A stretch of 64,000 nt of DNA, taken from assembly GCF_003991155.1 (NCBI RefSeq), contig NZ_CP031293.1, one strand, 5' to 3'. Source of the stretch: Escherichia coli (GTDB taxonomy: Bacteria > Pseudomonadota > Gammaproteobacteria > Enterobacterales > Enterobacteriaceae). Positions 1 to 11,507 of this stretch are shown in pieces. The notes beneath the pieces are model-generated. The model saw only the letters and a list, made by a program, of their open reading frames with translations, was not told the DNA's origin and ran no database searches. Each line of letters begins with the position of its first letter. Positions within the stretch are counted from its first letter, which is position 1. The position numbers were made by a program, and so were the translations under genes.

Positions 1-118
1 TCTCTACCCTGCTTAATGCTGTTAGAGAAGCATTTAGACCCCTTATTTTTAATTACCTAAAGTATCCTCTATACATCTCTGTTATGAAACACCTCTGAAT
101 CCTTCATAAAACACATTA

Positions 119-178
119 TGACGCAAAGAACACTTTTCTAAGGTGATTCCCTTCCTGAACTCTGTTTCTTGCGTCAGA
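119..178. repeat. Imperfect inverted repeat (TGACGCAA...TTGCGTCA arms, about 30-bp spacer)
   Basis: Read directly: tgacgcaaagaacac at 119-133 and ctgtttcttgcgtca at 164-178; the outer 8 bp are perfectly complementary. Confidence 0.5.
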
Positions 179-180
179 GA

Positions 181-300
181 GCTACACAGAGAGCTTATAA
201 AGCTATTATTAATAATAAAGTAGATAAAGTAAGTAAGATAAGTAAGAAGATTAACTAAGATAGATAAGATTAATAAGATCAGAATTCTCTTTCGGTGTCG
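181..300. repeat. Purine-rich low-complexity tract of degenerate AAGATA/AAGTA units
   Basis: Read directly: aagtagataaagtaagtaagataagtaagaagattaactaagatagataagattaataagatc. Confidence 0.5.
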
Positions 301-323
301 CCTCTGGCTTTTCCACCGAAAAC

Positions 324-474
324 AATTACACGACTACAGAATGTAGGAAGTGAAATTGTATTGAGGCTTAGTGAAATTACACGAGGAAAGCAGAGTGTAA
401 TTGAGCTTTAGCCGCTCTCTCTTCGAGTAATTACACAACTACAGAGAATAACAGAGTTATTAAATGTAGGAGGG
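324..474. repeat. Direct repeats AATTACAC(G/A)ACTACAGA ... ATGTAGGA(A/G)G, with extra AATTACAC / GTGTAATT copies forming a short palindrome
   Basis: Copies at 324-350 and 428-474; inverted arms aattacac / gtgtaatt within 371-406. Confidence 0.5.
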
Positions 475-883
475 TAATTAAGAGTTAGAGAGAGTTAACA
501 CGTAAGCAATCAGATGATTGGTTAGGTGATTACTCTTACTGCGCACAGCGCAATAGTATTCCTTCGTGGGCGTTACCGCCAACGATAGTTACACGAAGAA
601 AGTAACGCTTTGCTTTCGGTGTGAGCGGAACGGGCCAGCCACAAAGCCCGAAAGGTAGCGGAGTAAGGCTGCTTGCCAGAGAGTGGAGCTAACGCCGGAA
701 GGCAAAAGATCATATATATAGTATAAAGAATATTATTTAATTATAGTATTGGTGGAACTCATTACCTAAGGTAAACCGGAGACCACTTCCAACGGTTAGG
801 CAACCACTTCCAATTGTGTTATTTCCCCTTTTACCCTAAGTAAATTTTAGCCTTTCGTTACATCCATTTATCACATAGCACTT

Positions 884-1018
884 ACCCTGTGTAAATCATA
901 GAATAATGCTCTCTATTCCCTGTGTAATTCCATACTAAAAAATTCAATGAAAAGTAGTTTAAAAGTGCAATGTTAGCTTTCTTCACTTTTACATCACTTT
1001 CGCTGCGCCTTGTGTAAT
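884..1018. repeat. Three direct copies of a CCYTGTGTAAW motif (iteron or operator-like)
   Basis: ccctgtgtaaat (884-895), ccctgtgtaatt (918-929), ccttgtgtaatg (1007-1018). Confidence 0.45.
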
Positions 1019-1312
1019 GCGGCTTACAGAGCACTATCAGAAATTATTGATCAAAAATCAACCTATTATTTGTCGAACAAGTTTTCTTTAATGCAACAAA
1101 AATTATTTTTTCAAAATAAACACACAATTTAATAGCTTGCTAATTTTACCAAAATGTAACTACATGATTCTCATGCAAGAAGTGTAGTGATAAGGCAGGC
1201 TAAATCACCACACTAAAAAACTTCGAATTTCGTAGTGAAAAAAGTACTTTACACACCTAATCAACACGCCCAATAATCACTACACACAAATCAATACAGA
1301 AGAAAAAAGAAG

Positions 1313-1864
1313 ATGGCTAATATTGGATACATTAGGGTATCGACTGTGCAACAAAACACAGACCGTCAATTAGCAGGAGTAACTCTTGATAAAGTCTTTG
1401 AAGATAAAGCGTCAGGCAAGAACACTCAGCGCCCACAGTTTGAGGCAATGATGAACTATGTGCGGGAGGGTGACGTGTTACACGTCCATAGTATTGATCG
1501 CCTTTGTCGTAATACAGCCGACCTTCTGGCAACTGTAGAGCAATTAACAAAGCGCGGCGTGTCTGTGCATTTCCATAAAGAAGACTTTAAGACAGGAAAG
1601 AACTCTCCCGCAGGGAATATGATGCTCACAGTTCTTGCAGCAGTGGCACAAATGGAACGTGAAATGATGCTTGAGCGTCAACGTGAAGGGATCGCCGCAG
1701 CCAAGGCCGCTGGACGTATAGCAAAACGTGGTAATGGAAAAGCAATTGATCGAGCGGGAATTGCTGCCGCTCTCGCGAATGGTGGCTCAATTCGGAGCGT
1801 AGCAAAAGATTTCAGTGTCAGCACGCAGACGGTGCAACGTATCAAGAAAGAGCAGGTGGCGTAA
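1313..1864 (+). CDS. Small serine recombinase (resolvase/invertase family)
   Basis: 183 aa. N-terminal IGYIRVSTVQQ motif with the catalytic Ser typical of serine recombinases; C-terminal helix-turn-helix (SIRSVAKDFSVSTQTVQRI). Confidence 0.8.
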   Translation: MANIGYIRVSTVQQNTDRQLAGVTLDKVFEDKASGKNTQRPQFEAMMNYVREGDVLHVHSIDRLCRNTADLLATVEQLTKRGVSVHFHKEDFKTGKNSPAGNMMLTVLAAVAQMEREMMLERQREGIAAAKAAGRIAKRGNGKAIDRAGIAAALANGGSIRSVAKDFSVSTQTVQRIKKEQVA

Positions 1865-2030
1865 TGCCTCCTTGATATTTGACAGGGACGGTCGGCAAAA
1901 ATCGGGGCTTGCTGATCTCAGCGTTGAGCGGTTCTTGCAATGGTGCCTAGGTGCTCGCTTGTATTCCCCTTCGATAATCACCACTAAGCCACTTATTGCC
2001 TTGTGGAGTGGCCCGAAAATTACTGATATC

Positions 2031-2495
2031 TTATTGATTCAGTCGATCCCATTTAACCGCAGATACAATTCCCCAATTACCACTAGCATTAGGCCTACGC
2101 CACTTCGCGGTTTCCATTCCACGAAGGTATTCGAGAGCTTCATTGAACGAACTGAAACGTTTCTGGGCTGATTTTTCCCCTACTCTAAACGAACCATCGC
2201 GAGTACTTGCCAATCCTGGATGAAAACACGACCCATCTGCAGCATAAGGAACAAGTACCTCCTGATCATCAGGTTTCCTTGAATCAGAAGCCAGTAACTG
2301 CCAAGGCTCAATACGCAAAGCGTCAGCCAGAACCTCAATTGCATCAAGAGATGCATTAGAGCAACCACGCTCAATTCGACTCATATAACTACGTGCAAAA
2401 CCACACCGATCTGCAAAGGCCTCTTGGCTTAAGCCAATAGCTATACGGAACTCTTTTACTCGTTGTCCAAAAAGGTATCTCAGATTCTTTCGCAT
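2031..2495 (-). CDS. XRE-family helix-turn-helix regulator with an uncharacterised C-terminal domain
   Basis: Start trimmed to MRKNLRY. HTH segment IGLSQEAFADRCGFARSYMSRIERG is Cro/CI-like; divergent from the downstream secreted-protein gene. Confidence 0.7.
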   Translation of the reverse strand: MRKNLRYLFGQRVKEFRIAIGLSQEAFADRCGFARSYMSRIERGCSNASLDAIEVLADALRIEPWQLLASDSRKPDDQEVLVPYAADGSCFHPGLASTRDGSFRVGEKSAQKRFSSFNEALEYLRGMETAKWRRPNASGNWGIVSAVKWDRLNQ

Positions 2496-2605
2496 GGCAC
2501 AAAGATGCAATTTGACGCACCAATTAACCACGCACTAATCGTGACATTTTGAATCAATCATGTATTATTAGCATCACCATCCATTTGACACACCAAGGGA
2601 GACAA

Positions 2606-2953
2606 ATGAAAAAACTAGTATTTGCCGCTTTGTTAATTCCAGTGATGGGCCACGCCACAACCTTTTCCTGTAAAGCAATACAGGAAGGTCATATTGACTC
2701 GGGAAGTCAGAAAGTTTCTGTAGATTCAACTTTTGATATACAAGATAAAAAAATGACCATAAATCTTGGCGGTAAAACTTGGAGACTTGATTTGGTAGGT
2801 CAAAAAAGCATCGCAAAGATGTATGCTACACCTGACGGAGGGGTTGCAGCCACATACATTGACAATGGCAGTATACCGATATTTGTATTACGCCCTTCTA
2901 ATCCCGATGGGGAGATGGCTGTTTACACATTGAGTATGTGTTCTGAAGTATGA
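2606..2953 (+). CDS. Small exported protein of unknown function
   Basis: Start trimmed to MKKLVFAALLIPVMGHA, a signal-peptide-like N-terminus. No recognisable domain. Confidence 0.5.
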   Translation: MKKLVFAALLIPVMGHATTFSCKAIQEGHIDSGSQKVSVDSTFDIQDKKMTINLGGKTWRLDLVGQKSIAKMYATPDGGVAATYIDNGSIPIFVLRPSNPDGEMAVYTLSMCSEV

Positions 2954-3030
2954 TTGATCGGCGTGATATTCACGCCGTTTTTGGGGAAATTTGTATATTG
3001 AAAAATATAGAAATAGAACTTTTATCAAGC

Positions 3031-3756
3031 CTATTTATTAACAGGTAGTAATGTCAGATCGCCATAATGGGCTTGTCTATGGCAATTAGGACATAATGCA
3101 ATAGCATTTTCCACAGAGTCCTCCCCCCCCTTTGAAAGCCACTCAATATGATGAACTTCTAGAAATGGAGTACCATCTTCCTTTAGAAAAGGAGCATCTC
3201 GCTTACAATATTGACATTTTCCATTTGCACTCAAAAGAACTTCAGCAACTACATATGGGCTTCGTTTATAAACTCGTGTTGTTACTTCGATTAGTTCCGG
3301 GATTTTACTTTCTGTCGCTAAAATTTGCTTTCGTTCCACTGAAGATAATTTTGCAGCCGTCTCAACAGCTTCTTCGAAAACCGATTTTACTTGACGATAA
3401 CGCCACATCCCTTCTAAATCCTGGTATAATTCCCAAATACCGTGCACAGATGGTTGATAGATTTCAAAAATATTTCCACGCTTGAACAATCGGTCATACT
3501 TATGATGCCGATGAGTTACATCATCAGTTCGTCGGGCAGTTTTGTTGAAACTCCAGTAGCTCCGCTTACAATTAACTGTATTAGCAATTAAATTGAGCCA
3601 AGTATTATCTTTATAAGATGGAAATAGCTTTCTAAGATAATCATCTACCTGCTTAGCCGTTGCAGCCCCACCAAACTGATTAGCAATTATCTGTATGGTA
3701 ATAGCTCTTATCGGTTGATCGCCATACTTGTATTTTTTGCCTAAATTTTTAACCAT
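3031..3756 (-). CDS. McrA-like HNH endonuclease; candidate modification-dependent (type IV) restriction nuclease
   Basis: C-terminal CQYC...LEVHHIEWLSKGGEDSVENAIALCPNCHRQAH is an HNH motif with paired Cys zinc ligands. N-terminal roughly 150 aa unassigned. Confidence 0.6.
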   Translation of the reverse strand: MVKNLGKKYKYGDQPIRAITIQIIANQFGGAATAKQVDDYLRKLFPSYKDNTWLNLIANTVNCKRSYWSFNKTARRTDDVTHRHHKYDRLFKRGNIFEIYQPSVHGIWELYQDLEGMWRYRQVKSVFEEAVETAAKLSSVERKQILATESKIPELIEVTTRVYKRSPYVVAEVLLSANGKCQYCKRDAPFLKEDGTPFLEVHHIEWLSKGGEDSVENAIALCPNCHRQAHYGDLTLLPVNK

Positions 3757-3884
3757 AGAAGACTCACTAAGCCTAAATTCATCTTAAGTTATTATTGTAA
3801 ATTAGTTGTGAAAATTTTTGATCTCAGACAATAAAAATCTACAAATTATTAGCTGGTTATACACTAAGAAGGATACACGAATAA

Positions 3885-5192
3885 CTAAGTCTCCCAACAA
3901 AGACCATCGATCACATAACAAACGGTGGAAAGTGGGAATGTGTGCAGATAACGCTGGGTAATCCCTACTCCACTCTTTTCATGACCTACCACCTGTTGCA
4001 GATGCGCCAAATTACTCACCCAACCAGCTAAACAAGTAGAAATCATAGTATGCCGGAAACTATGCACCAAGCGCCGCTGCCCATAATCATCAAGATAAGG
4101 AATATCAAGCTGATCACGAACATCTGAAAGAACTTTACCTATCTTTGACATATTTCGACCTGAGACTTCCGAAAAGATTTTCTCTTTCCATTGGCGGTTA
4201 ACAAAATCCAGAAACCCCCACTCAATCAGTTTGGGATGAATCACTACCTGTCTTGTAGCATTCTCAGTTTTACCCAGCCTTCTTTCCGCGATCAGAAGAT
4301 AGTGCCGCTGGCTATCTTCATCAAATTTGATCTGCGACTTCTCCAGTTTAGCAATCTCACCTCTTCTGGCTCCTGTGTACGCCAACAACAAAGTGATCCA
4401 CTTCTGCCATCCATCAGGCTGCTTTAGTGCCCATCCTACAAATTTTTTCATTTCTGCTGCACTGTATGCACCAAACCTAGCTTTGGATGGTGCCGCTACT
4501 ATTCCATCAGTCGGAGACTTAGATAGAATATCTTTGTTTTCAGTCAGAAATGTTTTGAATAACGATTTGTAGATTTTAAGGTGCTTATGTACAGCCTCAG
4601 CACCAACTAAATCCTCTGGCAGCACATCATCACATTCGATTAGTTGCTGAATAGTCATTGACCTATACGGTTGCACTACACGCTTTGGTAAGTTTTCGAC
4701 AGTTTCCATTACTCGCTTAATATCTTGTTTGGTGATTGCCGTTACGTCTGTTTCTTTTCCCAAGACAACAAGCAATACCTCCATATAACGCTCATTTGCC
4801 ATTGAGATCGATTTTGTCCAATTTCGACCTCTTTCCTCCTTGTACATAGCCCACGCATCAGCAAGTGTTAGCACCTTTTCCGGTTTGGCTGGTGGTTGAA
4901 GCTGCAAAACTTCTTTAGAAATATTGTTCAATTGCTGAGGGAGTGGCAACGGAATCATTACGTTACGTGACGAAGCGATCAAGTTTGAAACAAACTTATT
5001 AAATTGTGGCAACGGAGTAGCGAGTGATTTAACGAAAGGAATGTGCGGAGTAAGGCCAATCATCAACGCCGATGCTTCGCGATAACTGTCAGTAAAAAGT
5101 GATTTTTTGTATATCCGACCATCCGAAAGCCGGATTTGTAGATAGTAATTACCGTTTCGCTGAAATGTGTATGGGAGAGTTCTTGACCTCAT
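3885..5192 (-). CDS. Tyrosine recombinase / integrase
   Basis: C-terminal catalytic signature (ARRGE, HSFRHT, VGHEK, TQRYLH). Start chosen at the internal Met (MRSRTLPY) because the first Met lacks an upstream ribosome-binding site. Confidence 0.8.
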   Translation of the reverse strand: MRSRTLPYTFQRNGNYYLQIRLSDGRIYKKSLFTDSYREASALMIGLTPHIPFVKSLATPLPQFNKFVSNLIASSRNVMIPLPLPQQLNNISKEVLQLQPPAKPEKVLTLADAWAMYKEERGRNWTKSISMANERYMEVLLVVLGKETDVTAITKQDIKRVMETVENLPKRVVQPYRSMTIQQLIECDDVLPEDLVGAEAVHKHLKIYKSLFKTFLTENKDILSKSPTDGIVAAPSKARFGAYSAAEMKKFVGWALKQPDGWQKWITLLLAYTGARRGEIAKLEKSQIKFDEDSQRHYLLIAERRLGKTENATRQVVIHPKLIEWGFLDFVNRQWKEKIFSEVSGRNMSKIGKVLSDVRDQLDIPYLDDYGQRRLVHSFRHTMISTCLAGWVSNLAHLQQVVGHEKSGVGITQRYLHTFPLSTVCYVIDGLCWET

Positions 5193-5385
5193 AAACGCCC
5201 CCTTTTTGTACCTTAACAGCATGATTTATGGTCAAAAAGAGATACAACCACATAATTTTCAAGACTATTTTGGCCCCCTACGCTGGCATTATCCAGATCA
5301 GGTGATACGGGTATTTCTCAGCCTTCACGCAGAAGGGCACCCCGAGTCGTTTGGTTGCGATGATAAATCGCAAAGGAGGATGGTA

Positions 5386-5460
5386 ATGTCCAGCGCACGC
5401 GTTGTAAACGAGGAAAAACGGCAGTTTTACAATCGCGTTAATAAATTATTTGATATATGA
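5386..5460 (+). CDS. Candidate 24-aa small ORF with a strong ribosome-binding site
   Basis: AAGGAGG at 5373-5379, then ATG at 5386 ([24 protein letters not shown]). Its 3' end overlaps the 3' end of rcnR convergently. Speculative. Confidence 0.2.
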
Positions 5461-5718
5461 ATCCAGCACCTTCAGAACGACATCCAGATCTTCTTCACGT
5501 TTTAGCTCATCCCCCTGGTGAACGATGTGTTCCGTCAGATGACCTTTAATCACTTCCCGCATCAGACCGTTTACCGCGCCACGGATAGCAGCAATCTGTT
5601 GTAAAACTGCAGCGCATTCGTGCGGCTCGTCGAGCATTTTCTTGAGCGCCACGACCTGGCCCTGAATCTTACTGGCACGCGCTTTCAGTTTCTGTTTATC
5701 ACGGATGGTATGAGACAT
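5446..5718 (-). CDS. rcnR: Ni/Co-responsive transcriptional repressor RcnR (CsoR/FrmR family)
   Basis: 90 aa, recognised as RcnR; divergent from rcnA with the operator in between. Confidence 0.95.
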
Positions 5719-5766
5719 GGCAACACCTGGTTAACAAGAATATGAAAAATCATAGCACTATTAATC

Positions 5767-5801
5767 TACTGGGGGGTAGTATCAGGTACTGGGGGGGAGT
5801 A
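5767..5801. promoter_or_regulatory. RcnR operator: two TACT-G6/7-N-AGTA sites in the rcnR-rcnA intergenic region
   Basis: tactggggggtagta (5767-5781) and tactgggggggagta (5787-5801), matching the known G-tract operator architecture. Confidence 0.75.
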
Positions 5802-5838
5802 GAATCAGATTGCCGAATTAATACTAAGAATTATTATC

Positions 5839-6648
<810 letters not shown>

Positions 6649-6866
6649 CTCAATCCTTTAGGCTTGCATGTTATCTTCAGCCCAGGATGATTCTTAAATC
6701 AGCTATTTCCGCTGACTCTCTGCTCGCTAAGGATGCTTTTAGGGCATCCTTTCATTTACACTTTTTACGAAATCATGGGATCACTAACAAAATATCGCTT
6801 GTCAGTTATATTGTATGGCAGGAAAGATATGCGACTGATATTACAGATCCCCAAAGTGGAGAGTTT

Positions 6867-7205
6867 ATGACCATTAAAAATAAGATGTTGCTGGGTGCGC
6901 TTTTGCTGGTTACCAGTGCCGCCTGGGCCGCACCAGCCACCGCGGGTTCGACCAATACCTCGGGAATTTCTAAGTATGAGTTAAGCAGTTTCATTGCTGA
7001 CTTTAAGCATTTCAAACCAGGTGACACCGTACCAGAAATGTACCGTACCGATGAGTACAACATTAAGCAGTGGCAGTTACGTAACCTGCCCGCGCCTGAT
7101 GCCGGGACGCACTGGACCTATATGGGTGGCGCGTACGTGTTGATCAGCGACACCGACGGTAAAATCATTAAAGCCTACGACGGTGAGATTTTTTATCATC
7201 GCTAA
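6867..7205 (+). CDS. rcnB: Periplasmic Ni/Co homeostasis protein RcnB
   Basis: Start trimmed to MTIKNKMLLGALLLVTSAAWA (signal peptide), 112 aa; the longer ORF-track start is an upstream extension. Confidence 0.9.
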   Translation: MTIKNKMLLGALLLVTSAAWAAPATAGSTNTSGISKYELSSFIADFKHFKPGDTVPEMYRTDEYNIKQWQLRNLPAPDAGTHWTYMGGAYVLISDTDGKIIKAYDGEIFYHR

Positions 7206-7210
7206 AAAAA

Positions 7211-7231
7211 GCCCCCTCGGAGAGAGGGGGA
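7211..7231. terminator. GC hairpin between convergent rcnB and yehA
   Basis: ccccctc / gaggggg stem with ggaga loop; the A-run at 7204-7210 is a U-run for the minus-strand yehA transcript. Confidence 0.6.
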
Positions 7232-7286
7232 AATGCAAACACCTTGTTATTTTTTATTATTAGCCACTTGCTCGTCTTGCTTATTA

Positions 7287-8321
7287 TTAGTCGTATTTCA
7301 CATTGATTAATGCGGTTGCCTCCAGTGCGCCAGATTTAACTTTGTTTGTATCGTAAACGTAGTAACTGGCCGTTATCGGAATTGAAACCGTTGTATCTGT
7401 AAGTTTTGACTTTGCCGCAATTTCTTTTAAATTTGTATATCCTTTACTGCTGTTAGTGATATTTAAAAGTGTGACTGGCGTACCATTACTTTCAAGAATA
7501 AATCCTACGCCATTATCTTCCGCACCTTTCAGGATCGTGTTGCTGTTGGTTAACAAGTCAGAACTTGATAAATACACCTGCATTTTCCGTGATGTTTGAT
7601 TTTGTTGACCTAATAAGTTTTTACAACGCAGAACAATATCCCCTTTGTTACTATTTATTGTTGCTTTGTTACCTGTAGCTGGTAATTGTGAAACGGGAAT
7701 ACTCTCTAACGTAATTAATAAATCGTCCGGTTTGCAGGTTGTGGTTATCGGGTTGTATGACAATGTCAGATTAAAGGAATAGACACCTGCATTTTGTGCC
7801 AATGCATTTCTGTAGCTATTTACACATGCATCCCATGACTTGCCACCGAATAAACACAGTAAAAATTGTACTGCAGCACTCCCGCGTGTCGATGATGAAG
7901 CACTGGATAATGTCGCAACACCATTAATCATCACTGAACCGCCGCCCCCCGCAGAAACATTCACTTTTGCATTACTGGCCGCAGGTGTCACCGTTACCGA
8001 ATAACCACTGGTGAAACTGGTCTGAGTATTTGACAACGTGATGTTGTTTTTATTGGTCCATTCAAAATGTAAATTTAATTTAATGGTATCGTTATAAAGT
8101 CCAACAATAATATCCGACGGGCTCATAGGGGTGATAGTATTTGTACTCACGCATGACGAATCATTAAAATTATGCTCATATGTCGCCATTTGTGTTTGAG
8201 TAAGTGCAAAATCCCCCTGAACAACCAAATTGTGCTGAACAGATAACTCACTATAACATGCTGCATAGCTCACAGGCATAACCATCATTATTAATATAAA
8301 TAGCATTATGCGAATTTCCAT
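7287..8321 (-). CDS. yehA: Fimbrial adhesin-like protein YehA
   Basis: 344 aa, signal peptide; last gene of the yehDCBA operon. Confidence 0.9.
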   Translation of the reverse strand: MEIRIMLFILIMMVMPVSYAACYSELSVQHNLVVQGDFALTQTQMATYEHNFNDSSCVSTNTITPMSPSDIIVGLYNDTIKLNLHFEWTNKNNITLSNTQTSFTSGYSVTVTPAASNAKVNVSAGGGGSVMINGVATLSSASSSTRGSAAVQFLLCLFGGKSWDACVNSYRNALAQNAGVYSFNLTLSYNPITTTCKPDDLLITLESIPVSQLPATGNKATINSNKGDIVLRCKNLLGQQNQTSRKMQVYLSSSDLLTNSNTILKGAEDNGVGFILESNGTPVTLLNITNSSKGYTNLKEIAAKSKLTDTTVSIPITASYYVYDTNKVKSGALEATALINVKYD

Positions 8322-10832: not shown

Positions 10833-11507
10833 TTAAATTTTGTCACTAATATAGTTGCCATGGTCATCGATAATGGTCAGATGCCAGTTATTCGCATTAT
10901 TACTTTTGACATTAATACTCTGACTTTCTAAGGGGGCAATCATAATAGTTTCATAATTGACTTTGACATTATTAGCTTTGACATCCGAAATCGTCACCCA
11001 ATTTGCTGAGTCATTTTTTATCACCAATCCATTGCCACTGCGATTTACCCGTAACTTTTTAAATGTCGCTTTATTTACCGGTGCAATACCCGCAGGCCGG
11101 TAAAACAATTTGATTCTGTTTTGCATTGCAAATTTCAGTGCATTCTTGCCCTCTTGCTCTGGACTATTTGGTGGAATATCCAGAACATTCAGATAAAAAA
11201 TGCTCTCTTTATTAGTGGGCAGTTTATTCGGCATAATTTTGATTTTTACTTGCTGCCCGGAATTTGCCCCTATTTTTGCCACTGGTGGCGTTAACATGAA
11301 AGGAACCTGAATTTTTTCTGGTGGTAACGACGTATCACCATCATCAATCCACGCCTGCAGCAGCGAAGAACGGTTTCCCTGATTCATCAACTGCACCATC
11401 ACTTCTTTATTTTCTGCCGGGTAAATAATACGCGTCCCGTAGATAACAATACCGGCATGTGCAGGAAGGACCATAGAAGAAATGAGTAAAGCAAATAATC
11501 CTTTCAT
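10833..11507 (-). CDS. yehC: Periplasmic fimbrial chaperone YehC
   Basis: 224 aa with signal peptide; PapD-like chaperone between major subunit and usher genes. Confidence 0.9.
   Translation of the reverse strand: MKGLFALLISSMVLPAHAGIVIYGTRIIYPAENKEVMVQLMNQGNRSSLLQAWIDDGDTSLPPEKIQVPFMLTPPVAKIGANSGQQVKIKIMPNKLPTNKESIFYLNVLDIPPNSPEQEGKNALKFAMQNRIKLFYRPAGIAPVNKATFKKLRVNRSGNGLVIKNDSANWVTISDVKANNVKVNYETIMIAPLESQSINVKSNNANNWHLTIIDDHGNYISDKI

Follow-up and report, generated by a model that had tools for sequence, protein, structure and literature searches.

A two-domain HNH nuclease with a predicted winged-helix reader domain in a thiM-adjacent island of Escherichia coli

Background

Type IV restriction enzymes are assembled from interchangeable readers and nucleases, and several of these readers now serve as tools for epigenetic mapping. 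To our knowledge, each new type IV reader has so far revealed a new mode of modified-DNA recognition. A small domain that is swapped among nuclease chassis and McrB is an established sign of a type IV target-recognition module.

Among the described systems, EcoKMcrA is the closest to the locus presented here; as cofactors it prefers Mn2+ or Co2+. This 277-aa protein is carried by the K-12 prophage e14 without a methyltransferase and consists of an N-terminal reader, NEco, which is built on a six-stranded antiparallel beta-sheet (PMC7145662), and a C-terminal HNH domain. EcoKMcrA is a weak nuclease in vitro, alanine variants of its H228, H229, H252, and H256 give no cleavage products, and its "crossover" segment forms part of the HNH dimer interface (PMC6182155). 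A second group comprises wH-HNH (224-283 aa) and PUA-wH-HNH enzymes, which read Gm6ATC, the Dam site, and show toxicity in Dam+ E. coli hosts (Helbrecht et al. 2024, PMC11037411). As for the END nucleases described in a preprint, the reader differs and is an inactive EndoIII (PMC12191111). In E. coli B, finally, a proven type IV enzyme, EcoBLMcrX, has been reported from the thiM-adjacent island (PMC5487053).

The gene considered here lies in the window, i.e., the whole 64,000-nt stretch of E. coli contig NZ_CP031293.1 that was analysed, and encodes a 241-aa protein. Like EcoKMcrA, this protein has an N-terminal reader followed by a C-terminal HNH domain (241 vs 277 aa), with a homologous HNH domain, a Cys4 zinc site, four catalytic histidines, and an alignable crossover segment, and it is likewise carried by a mobile element that has no methyltransferase. 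The reader is where the two differ: the NEco beta-sheet in McrA and a predicted DUF7669 winged helix here. With the HhiV4I group the protein shares an N-terminal winged helix fused to HNH as well as a similar length, whereas the HNH domain is of the HNH_2 kind there and McrA-type here. Some more distant DUF7669 proteins carry a DUF3427/PUA-like domain in front (P0133), echoing the PUA-wH-HNH plan. The likeness to McrBC is that DUF7669 also occurs at the N-terminus of McrB-like GTPases, the target-reader position of McrB (proteins P0145 and P0178); the window protein, however, has neither an NTPase nor McrC and is a single-chain, NTP-independent design. As for EcoBLMcrX (BisI family, Pfam DUF6998), both enzymes belong to the same thiM-adjacent island family and both are small, stand-alone, and without a methyltransferase. 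The two proteins are nevertheless unrelated, and EcoBLMcrX takes the thiM-proximal cargo slot, in contrast to the integrase-proximal slot of the HNH gene.

Results

The nuclease gene and its HNH domain

The 241-aa open reading frame at window positions 3031-3756 (minus strand, ATG to stop, from the window ORF list) is a real gene, and RefSeq annotates the identical 241-aa gene as WP_000240373.1, "HNH endonuclease". The gene and its parts are as follows.

3031..3756, minus strand: two-domain nuclease gene, complete (ORF, RefSeq CDS WP_000240373.1); predicted winged-helix/DUF7669 plus McrA-type HNH
3382..3741, minus strand: N-terminal predicted reader domain, aa 6-125; modelled winged helix plus extra beta-hairpin, very likely a divergent DUF7669
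3277..3381, minus strand: linker, aa 126-160, including a segment that aligns to the McrA "crossover" strand (6ghc alignment, residue mapping, PMC6182155)
3061..3276, minus strand: McrA-type HNH (beta-beta-alpha-Me) nuclease domain, aa 161-232 (Pfam HNH, 6ghc, residue mapping)

In the 128-bp gap preceding the nuclease gene, a simple scan detects no promoter of the sigma-70 type, and the promoter/terminator scan returns nothing convincing for this gene.

An initial annotation had reported an HNH motif with flanking Cys pairs at the C-terminus and a resemblance to McrA, and both observations hold. Pfam HNH (PF01844) matches aa 181-230 with an E-value of 1.2e-12. Read from the translation, the motif is C181-x2-C184 ... 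H202-H203 ... N217 ... C222-x2-C225-H226 ... H230, with the H202-H203 codons given by the reverse complement of window 3148-3153 (atgatg). According to the PDB sequence search, aa 141-232 align to EcoKMcrA (PDB 6ghc) with an E-value of 8.5e-23; 45% of residues are identical across 93 columns, rising to 51% in the 72-residue core. ScoMcrA, the next PDB sequence match to the query, is far weaker (E 1.1e-7). Residues 149-232 are also hit, at E 1.9e-23, by mREase_IV, the PADLOC model of McrA-like type IV enzymes.

The residue mapping, in which query numbers equal native McrA numbers minus 26, pairs query H202, H203, H226, and H230 with McrA H228, H229, H252, and H256, respectively, and the Zn-binding C181, C184, C222, and C225 with McrA C207, C210, C248, and C251. 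The McrA crossover segment (179-191) aligns to query 153-165. Across 15 family members, down to 45% overall identity, the catalytic histidines and Zn-binding cysteines are invariant. Judging by these alignments, the C-terminal half is clearly homologous to the McrA HNH domain, and the 241-aa protein is very probably an active, dimeric HNH nuclease, the dimeric state being one that we infer from the sequence.

The N-terminal domain

The N-terminal part had been described as not recognisable, and it proves to be so for direct comparisons: query aa 1-140 match no family in Pfam, NCBIfam, or PADLOC and no PDB sequence. The HMM and structure search that the initial annotation had proposed for this domain was run and leads to a winged helix and, via homologues, to Pfam DUF7669.

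With aa 1-151 as the query, an exhaustive phmmer search finds 60 proteins at E<=1e-3 among 1.84 billion representatives, with E-values down to 1e-62, and these place the domain N-terminally, internally, or in duplicate. The query and the domains excised from 57 phmmer-found proteins make up alignment A1 (58 sequences). Its consensus is VN..R....N..PRRTD.G..YD.LF..G...YELYDP..HGVWEIY; N62, D88, and G106 are invariant, and V61, R65, R75, L90, Y100, H105, and W108 are at least 90% conserved. Pfam DUF7669 (PF24706) is matched by 30 of the 58 A1 domains (best E 1.7e-19), and the query alone has no match to it at E<=10. By transitivity through these homologues, the query N-domain is very likely a divergent DUF7669 subfamily. 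A literature search found no paper naming the family.

AF2 run on the single full-length sequence gives an unusable model (pLDDT 37.5), and an alignment-based run of the N-domain was used instead. With A1 as input, aa 1-132 are modelled with pLDDT 92.2 and pTM 0.83. The elements are, in order, helix 16-27, strand 31-33, helix 34-44, and helix 52-58, followed by a long conserved loop and then two beta-hairpins (90-99 and 108-122). According to this confident model, the N-domain is predicted to be a winged helix with an extended wing, formed by the extra beta-hairpin.

Foldseek against AFDB50 reports 50 proteins at E<=1e-3, with TMq from 0.62 to 0.89. The names of these matches include DUF7669, HNH endonuclease, DUF91/NucS/RecB-like nuclease, DUF1016, and DUF3427, as well as "5-methylcytosine-specific restriction protein B", GIY-YIG, and DUF262. 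For AFDB proteins named DUF7669, TMq against the N-domain model is about 0.7 at a probability of 1.00. The domain is without a solved close relative: the family profile finds nothing among PDB sequences (best E 0.26), and Foldseek against PDB gives nothing significant, with DpnI (4kyw) at rank 7 and E 1.2. Kinship with HARE-HTH was considered from the sequence pattern; it has no Pfam or PDB support and is not claimed.

Fusion partners of DUF7669

A Pfam scan at E<=0.001 covered 40 full-length DUF7669 proteins, and the partner domains were counted as follows.

HNH_2: 21/40
HNH, McrA-type: 7/40
NucS_C: 3/40
AAA_5 (McrB-like): 2/40
Resolvase: 1/40
DUF3427: 0/40 at this threshold, with one weak match (E 0.0025)

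In addition, Foldseek against AFDB places the module in GIY-YIG, DUF262, DUF1016, and DUF3427 proteins. Two proteins (P0145 and P0178) have DUF7669 in the N-terminal reader position of an McrB GTPase, with McrC immediately downstream. The HNH_2 partner domain of one DUF7669 protein matches VcaM4I (6yex), a 5mC/5hmC-dependent enzyme.

Fusion to several nuclease types and to McrB/McrC points to DUF7669 as a target-reading module of type IV enzymes, an argument based on architecture. The divergence between alleles fits a specificity module as well: compared with the allele P0072, the N-domain is 69% identical and the HNH domain 94%, i.e., the N-domain diverges faster. The earlier suggestion that the N-terminal part may set specificity is thereby supported in silico, given that it is a separate module whose fusion partners are nucleases or McrB followed by McrC. 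Based on these patterns, the N-domain is most likely the target-recognition part of a type IV restriction enzyme. As no DUF7669 member has been characterised, DNA binding and modification dependence are predicted from fold and architecture only.

The island at thiM

The nuclease gene follows a tyrosine integrase gene, with which it shares the strand, after a gap of 128 bp. The island has the following further landmarks.

3885..5222, minus strand: tyrosine integrase (ORF; phrog_1, E 9.4e-27; RefSeq start 5192, 435 aa)
5276..5357, no strand assigned: right att copy of the 82-bp direct repeat, within the TPP riboswitch aptamer

In the complete genome L001 (window coordinate = L001 coordinate minus 5970) the island spans 7.8 kb, with a perfect 82-bp direct repeat at its two ends (3462-3543 and 11246-11327; spacing 7784). 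The left repeat copy, which adjoins thiM, is about 2.4 kb beyond the window start, and the window begins within the island. GC content equals 38.2% for the nuclease gene, 40.6% for the island part of the window, and 50.9% for the rest of the window.

The 82-bp repeat falls within the TPP riboswitch of thiM, hence the annotation of two riboswitch copies, one with its aptamer at window 5259-5354 (minus strand; Rfam 61.3 bits, model 1-105) and the other at L001 3444-3543. The native promoter side of thiM now feeds a chimeric full-length TPP aptamer located 37-67 nt upstream of the integrase start, and thiMD retains the other TPP riboswitch copy. Given this chimeric aptamer, the integrase, and perhaps the downstream nuclease, might respond to thiamine.

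The other island genes encode a serine recombinase, an XRE-type HTH protein, a small secreted protein, a replication-initiator-like protein, and a 79-aa HTH-like protein. According to the ORF list, domain searches, and RefSeq annotation, no methyltransferase is present in the island.

Several side observations concern the remaining parts of the island. Six tandem 13-bp repeats, AGTGGCTTATTTA, occupy L001 5766-5868 in a 1.8-kb unannotated stretch to the left of the window start. Beside these iterons, a 239-aa protein (L001 4418-5137) weakly matches phage families of replication initiation (O-like / DnaD-like); once excised, the island may be able to replicate. Window 1-1312, located between the iterons and the serine recombinase gene, has 36% GC, no annotated gene, and no long ORF. 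The XRE-type HTH gene (2031-2531, minus strand) encodes an HTH that matches controller (C) models of R-M systems (PADLOC Control_protein, E 6.6e-17), with roughly 75 additional residues at the C-terminus. Divergent from it, the gene at 2549-2953 (plus strand) encodes a 134-aa protein (phrog_35183) with an N-terminal hydrophobic stretch, signal-peptide-like by eye. This pair of genes is situated between the nuclease and recombinase genes.

In BL21(DE3), the EcoBLMcrX gene (DUF6998, 143 aa) is preceded by a 79-aa gene that is 94% identical to its counterpart in the window's island; in the latter, according to RefSeq annotation, the 79-aa upstream gene is present and EcoBLMcrX is absent. One related island, L005, carries both EcoBLMcrX (98% identical) and an allele of the HNH nuclease. 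The EcoBLMcrX loci are at L005 11906-12623 and, in BL21(DE3), at L015 17426-18143. The ECD_02033 primer (PMC5487053) has no match in L001 within 2 mismatches, and the relationship is drawn from proteins instead. In BL21(DE3), the integrase-proximal half of the island and rcnR-yeh have both been lost to an IS1.

With EcoBLMcrX on board, the thiM island family is a known vehicle for type IV enzymes. The initial annotation had called a position beside an integrase typical for a defence gene, which agrees with related islands at the same site carrying EcoBLMcrX and an AIPR (Abi) gene (PMC5487053). The defence-hotspot paper for E. coli does not mention the thiM island locus (PMC10121019).

Distribution and homologue contexts

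At an identity of at least 99%, the nuclease gene is found in 68 of the 5426 complete E. coli genomes; the integrase is present in 146 of the 5426. In NZ_CP195347.1 (3122126-3123627), the match to the 726-bp query comes in two pieces over approximately 1.5 kb with an IS1 family transposase annotated beneath, and it looks like the gene there is disrupted by an IS1 insertion.

A word-indexed search yields 128 close relatives of 240-243 aa, all of them from Enterobacterales and all two-domain. Members of the cluster bear the JGI label "5-methylcytosine-specific restriction protein A". The allele P0072, 76% identical to the window nuclease and indexed in 1,640 blocks of the contig collection, holds the same slot in related islands, at the thiM site and at two other sites. 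It is followed in these islands by variable cargo, including the AIPR (Abi) gene. The P0072 islands also have a 161-aa ORF without Pfam matches, which shares 35 nt with the 3' end of the nuclease gene (L003 6689-7174; also L004 and L006), and an 86-aa ORF between the integrase and the nuclease. Both ORFs are absent from the window's island, so they are not obligatory nuclease partners.

Homologues stand beside integrases in three different island types; a Pectobacterium homologue, for instance, adjoins a P4-type integrase. Others reside on plasmids: one on a 4.7-kb Pectobacterium Rep/Fic plasmid (L016, NZ_KT351736.1) and one beside a resolvase on an IncX5 blaKPC-2 conjugative carbapenemase plasmid of Klebsiella (L017). 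With homologues on both small and conjugative plasmids, the gene evidently travels on several kinds of mobile elements. In the islands and plasmids examined, no methyltransferase adjoins the homologues.

Discussion

Taken as a whole, the gene is probably a stand-alone, methyltransferase-less type IV, i.e., modification-dependent, restriction enzyme carried as small-island cargo, with the following mechanism proposed. Two protomers would dimerise via their McrA-type HNH domains and jointly form one DNA-cleaving site, a proposal based on the crossover segment, which can be aligned, and on conservation of the catalytic core. Each winged-helix (DUF7669) domain would separately bind DNA and recognise a feature that is missing from host DNA (most likely a modified base carried by phage or foreign DNA), and the DNA would be cut near the recognised site. 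As the reader domain is unrelated to that of McrA, McrA specificity (Y5mCGR) is not expected. The hosts, E. coli and other Enterobacterales, are Dam+. Since the family is resident in these hosts, Dam methylation (Gm6ATC), and in E. coli also Dcm methylation, cannot be the target.

A different, though unlikely, explanation is that the nuclease serves the island itself. The winged helix would then bind an unmodified sequence or structure, such as the island origin, att, or a competing element, and HNH would nick or cut there for the purposes of replication, transfer, exclusion of rival elements, or post-segregational killing. The gene is indeed always on mobile elements, beside integrases, replication genes, or resolvases; this island has a Rep-like protein and 13-bp iterons; and winged helices mostly bind specific sequences. 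However, the family occurs on at least three unrelated backbones (the present integrase family, the P4-type integrase island, and the IncX5 and 4.7-kb plasmids), which means that it is not tied to the DNA of one element. Moreover, the N-domain is common to McrB-McrC systems and other type IV-like nucleases, and the neighbours of the nuclease are variable cargo.

It is likewise improbable that the gene acts in modification-independent defence, with the N-domain sensing an unusual DNA structure or a phage trigger and HNH degrading DNA indiscriminately in the manner of abortive infection. The partners of DUF7669 (McrB/McrC, VcaM4I-type HNH_2, DUF3427, and GmrSD-like DUF262) are those typical of modification-dependent restriction, and in the homologue contexts examined no conserved regulator or antitoxin partner adjoins the gene.

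That the protein is an actual orthologue of McrA, sharing its Y5mCGR / 5hmC specificity and having an N-terminus diverged past recognition, seems very unlikely. The 45-51% identity of the HNH domains and the JGI label of the cluster members would agree with it. The N-domain, however, is modelled as a helix-rich winged helix (pLDDT 92), while NEco is a beta-sheet (PMC7145662). In addition, McrA-based models and the 6ghc alignment are limited to aa 141-232, and the NEco feature is absent from the query N-domain.

The case for a Dam-context m6A-dependent wH-HNH enzyme of the HhiV4I/SruGXI type is weaker still, and we consider it scarcely credible. The plan and size are the same (241 aa vs 224-283 aa; PMC11037411), and DpnI is among the weak Foldseek matches. 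Against this, the A1 profile and HhiV4I (HHPV4 ORF6) give an hhalign probability of 1.4% with the winged-helix region not aligned, and neither DpnI nor any other PDB sequence is picked up by the profile. The HNH subtypes also differ, being McrA-type here and of the HNH_2 kind in HhiV4I. Furthermore, such enzymes are toxic in Dam+ E. coli, yet E. coli and further Enterobacterales harbour the nuclease family.

The HNH homing endonuclease that the initial annotation had named as the contrary reading is not supported, as this is a free-standing island gene with no intron or intein, Rfam reports only the TPP riboswitch and no intron in window 1-8000, and the N-domain has no match in 50,697 phage records (tblastn).

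Returning to the type IV enzyme, what its reader recognises allows for a bolder proposal. DUF7669 might be a new modification-reader class, beyond SRA/PUA, NEco, the DpnI-type winged helix, the sulfur-binding domain, and iEndoIII, plugged into at least six nuclease/NTPase chassis; we put this forward tentatively, as a possibility that is rather doubtful at present. Candidate targets would then be a hypermodified base, deazaguanine, or phosphorothioate, and, of all members, the 241-aa enzyme would be the smallest one tractable for chemical study and for reagent use.

Conclusions

RefSeq annotation and PADLOC already flag the protein through its C-terminus, so a type IV assignment is not a surprise; what is added to the earlier HNH/type IV annotation is the assignment of the N-domain to a winged helix and DUF7669. 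The gain is thus practical, a compact and easily tested enzyme, rather than a conceptual surprise. An anti-phage restriction role of the 241-aa nuclease is plausible. For E. coli, the thiM-adjacent island known for EcoBLMcrX carries a probable alternative type IV cargo. For the domain family, the widespread DUF7669 is linked to a type IV reader role via a confident fold, a fusion pattern, and a compact E. coli representative, and this unstudied, widely reused reader domain is a reasonable experimental target.
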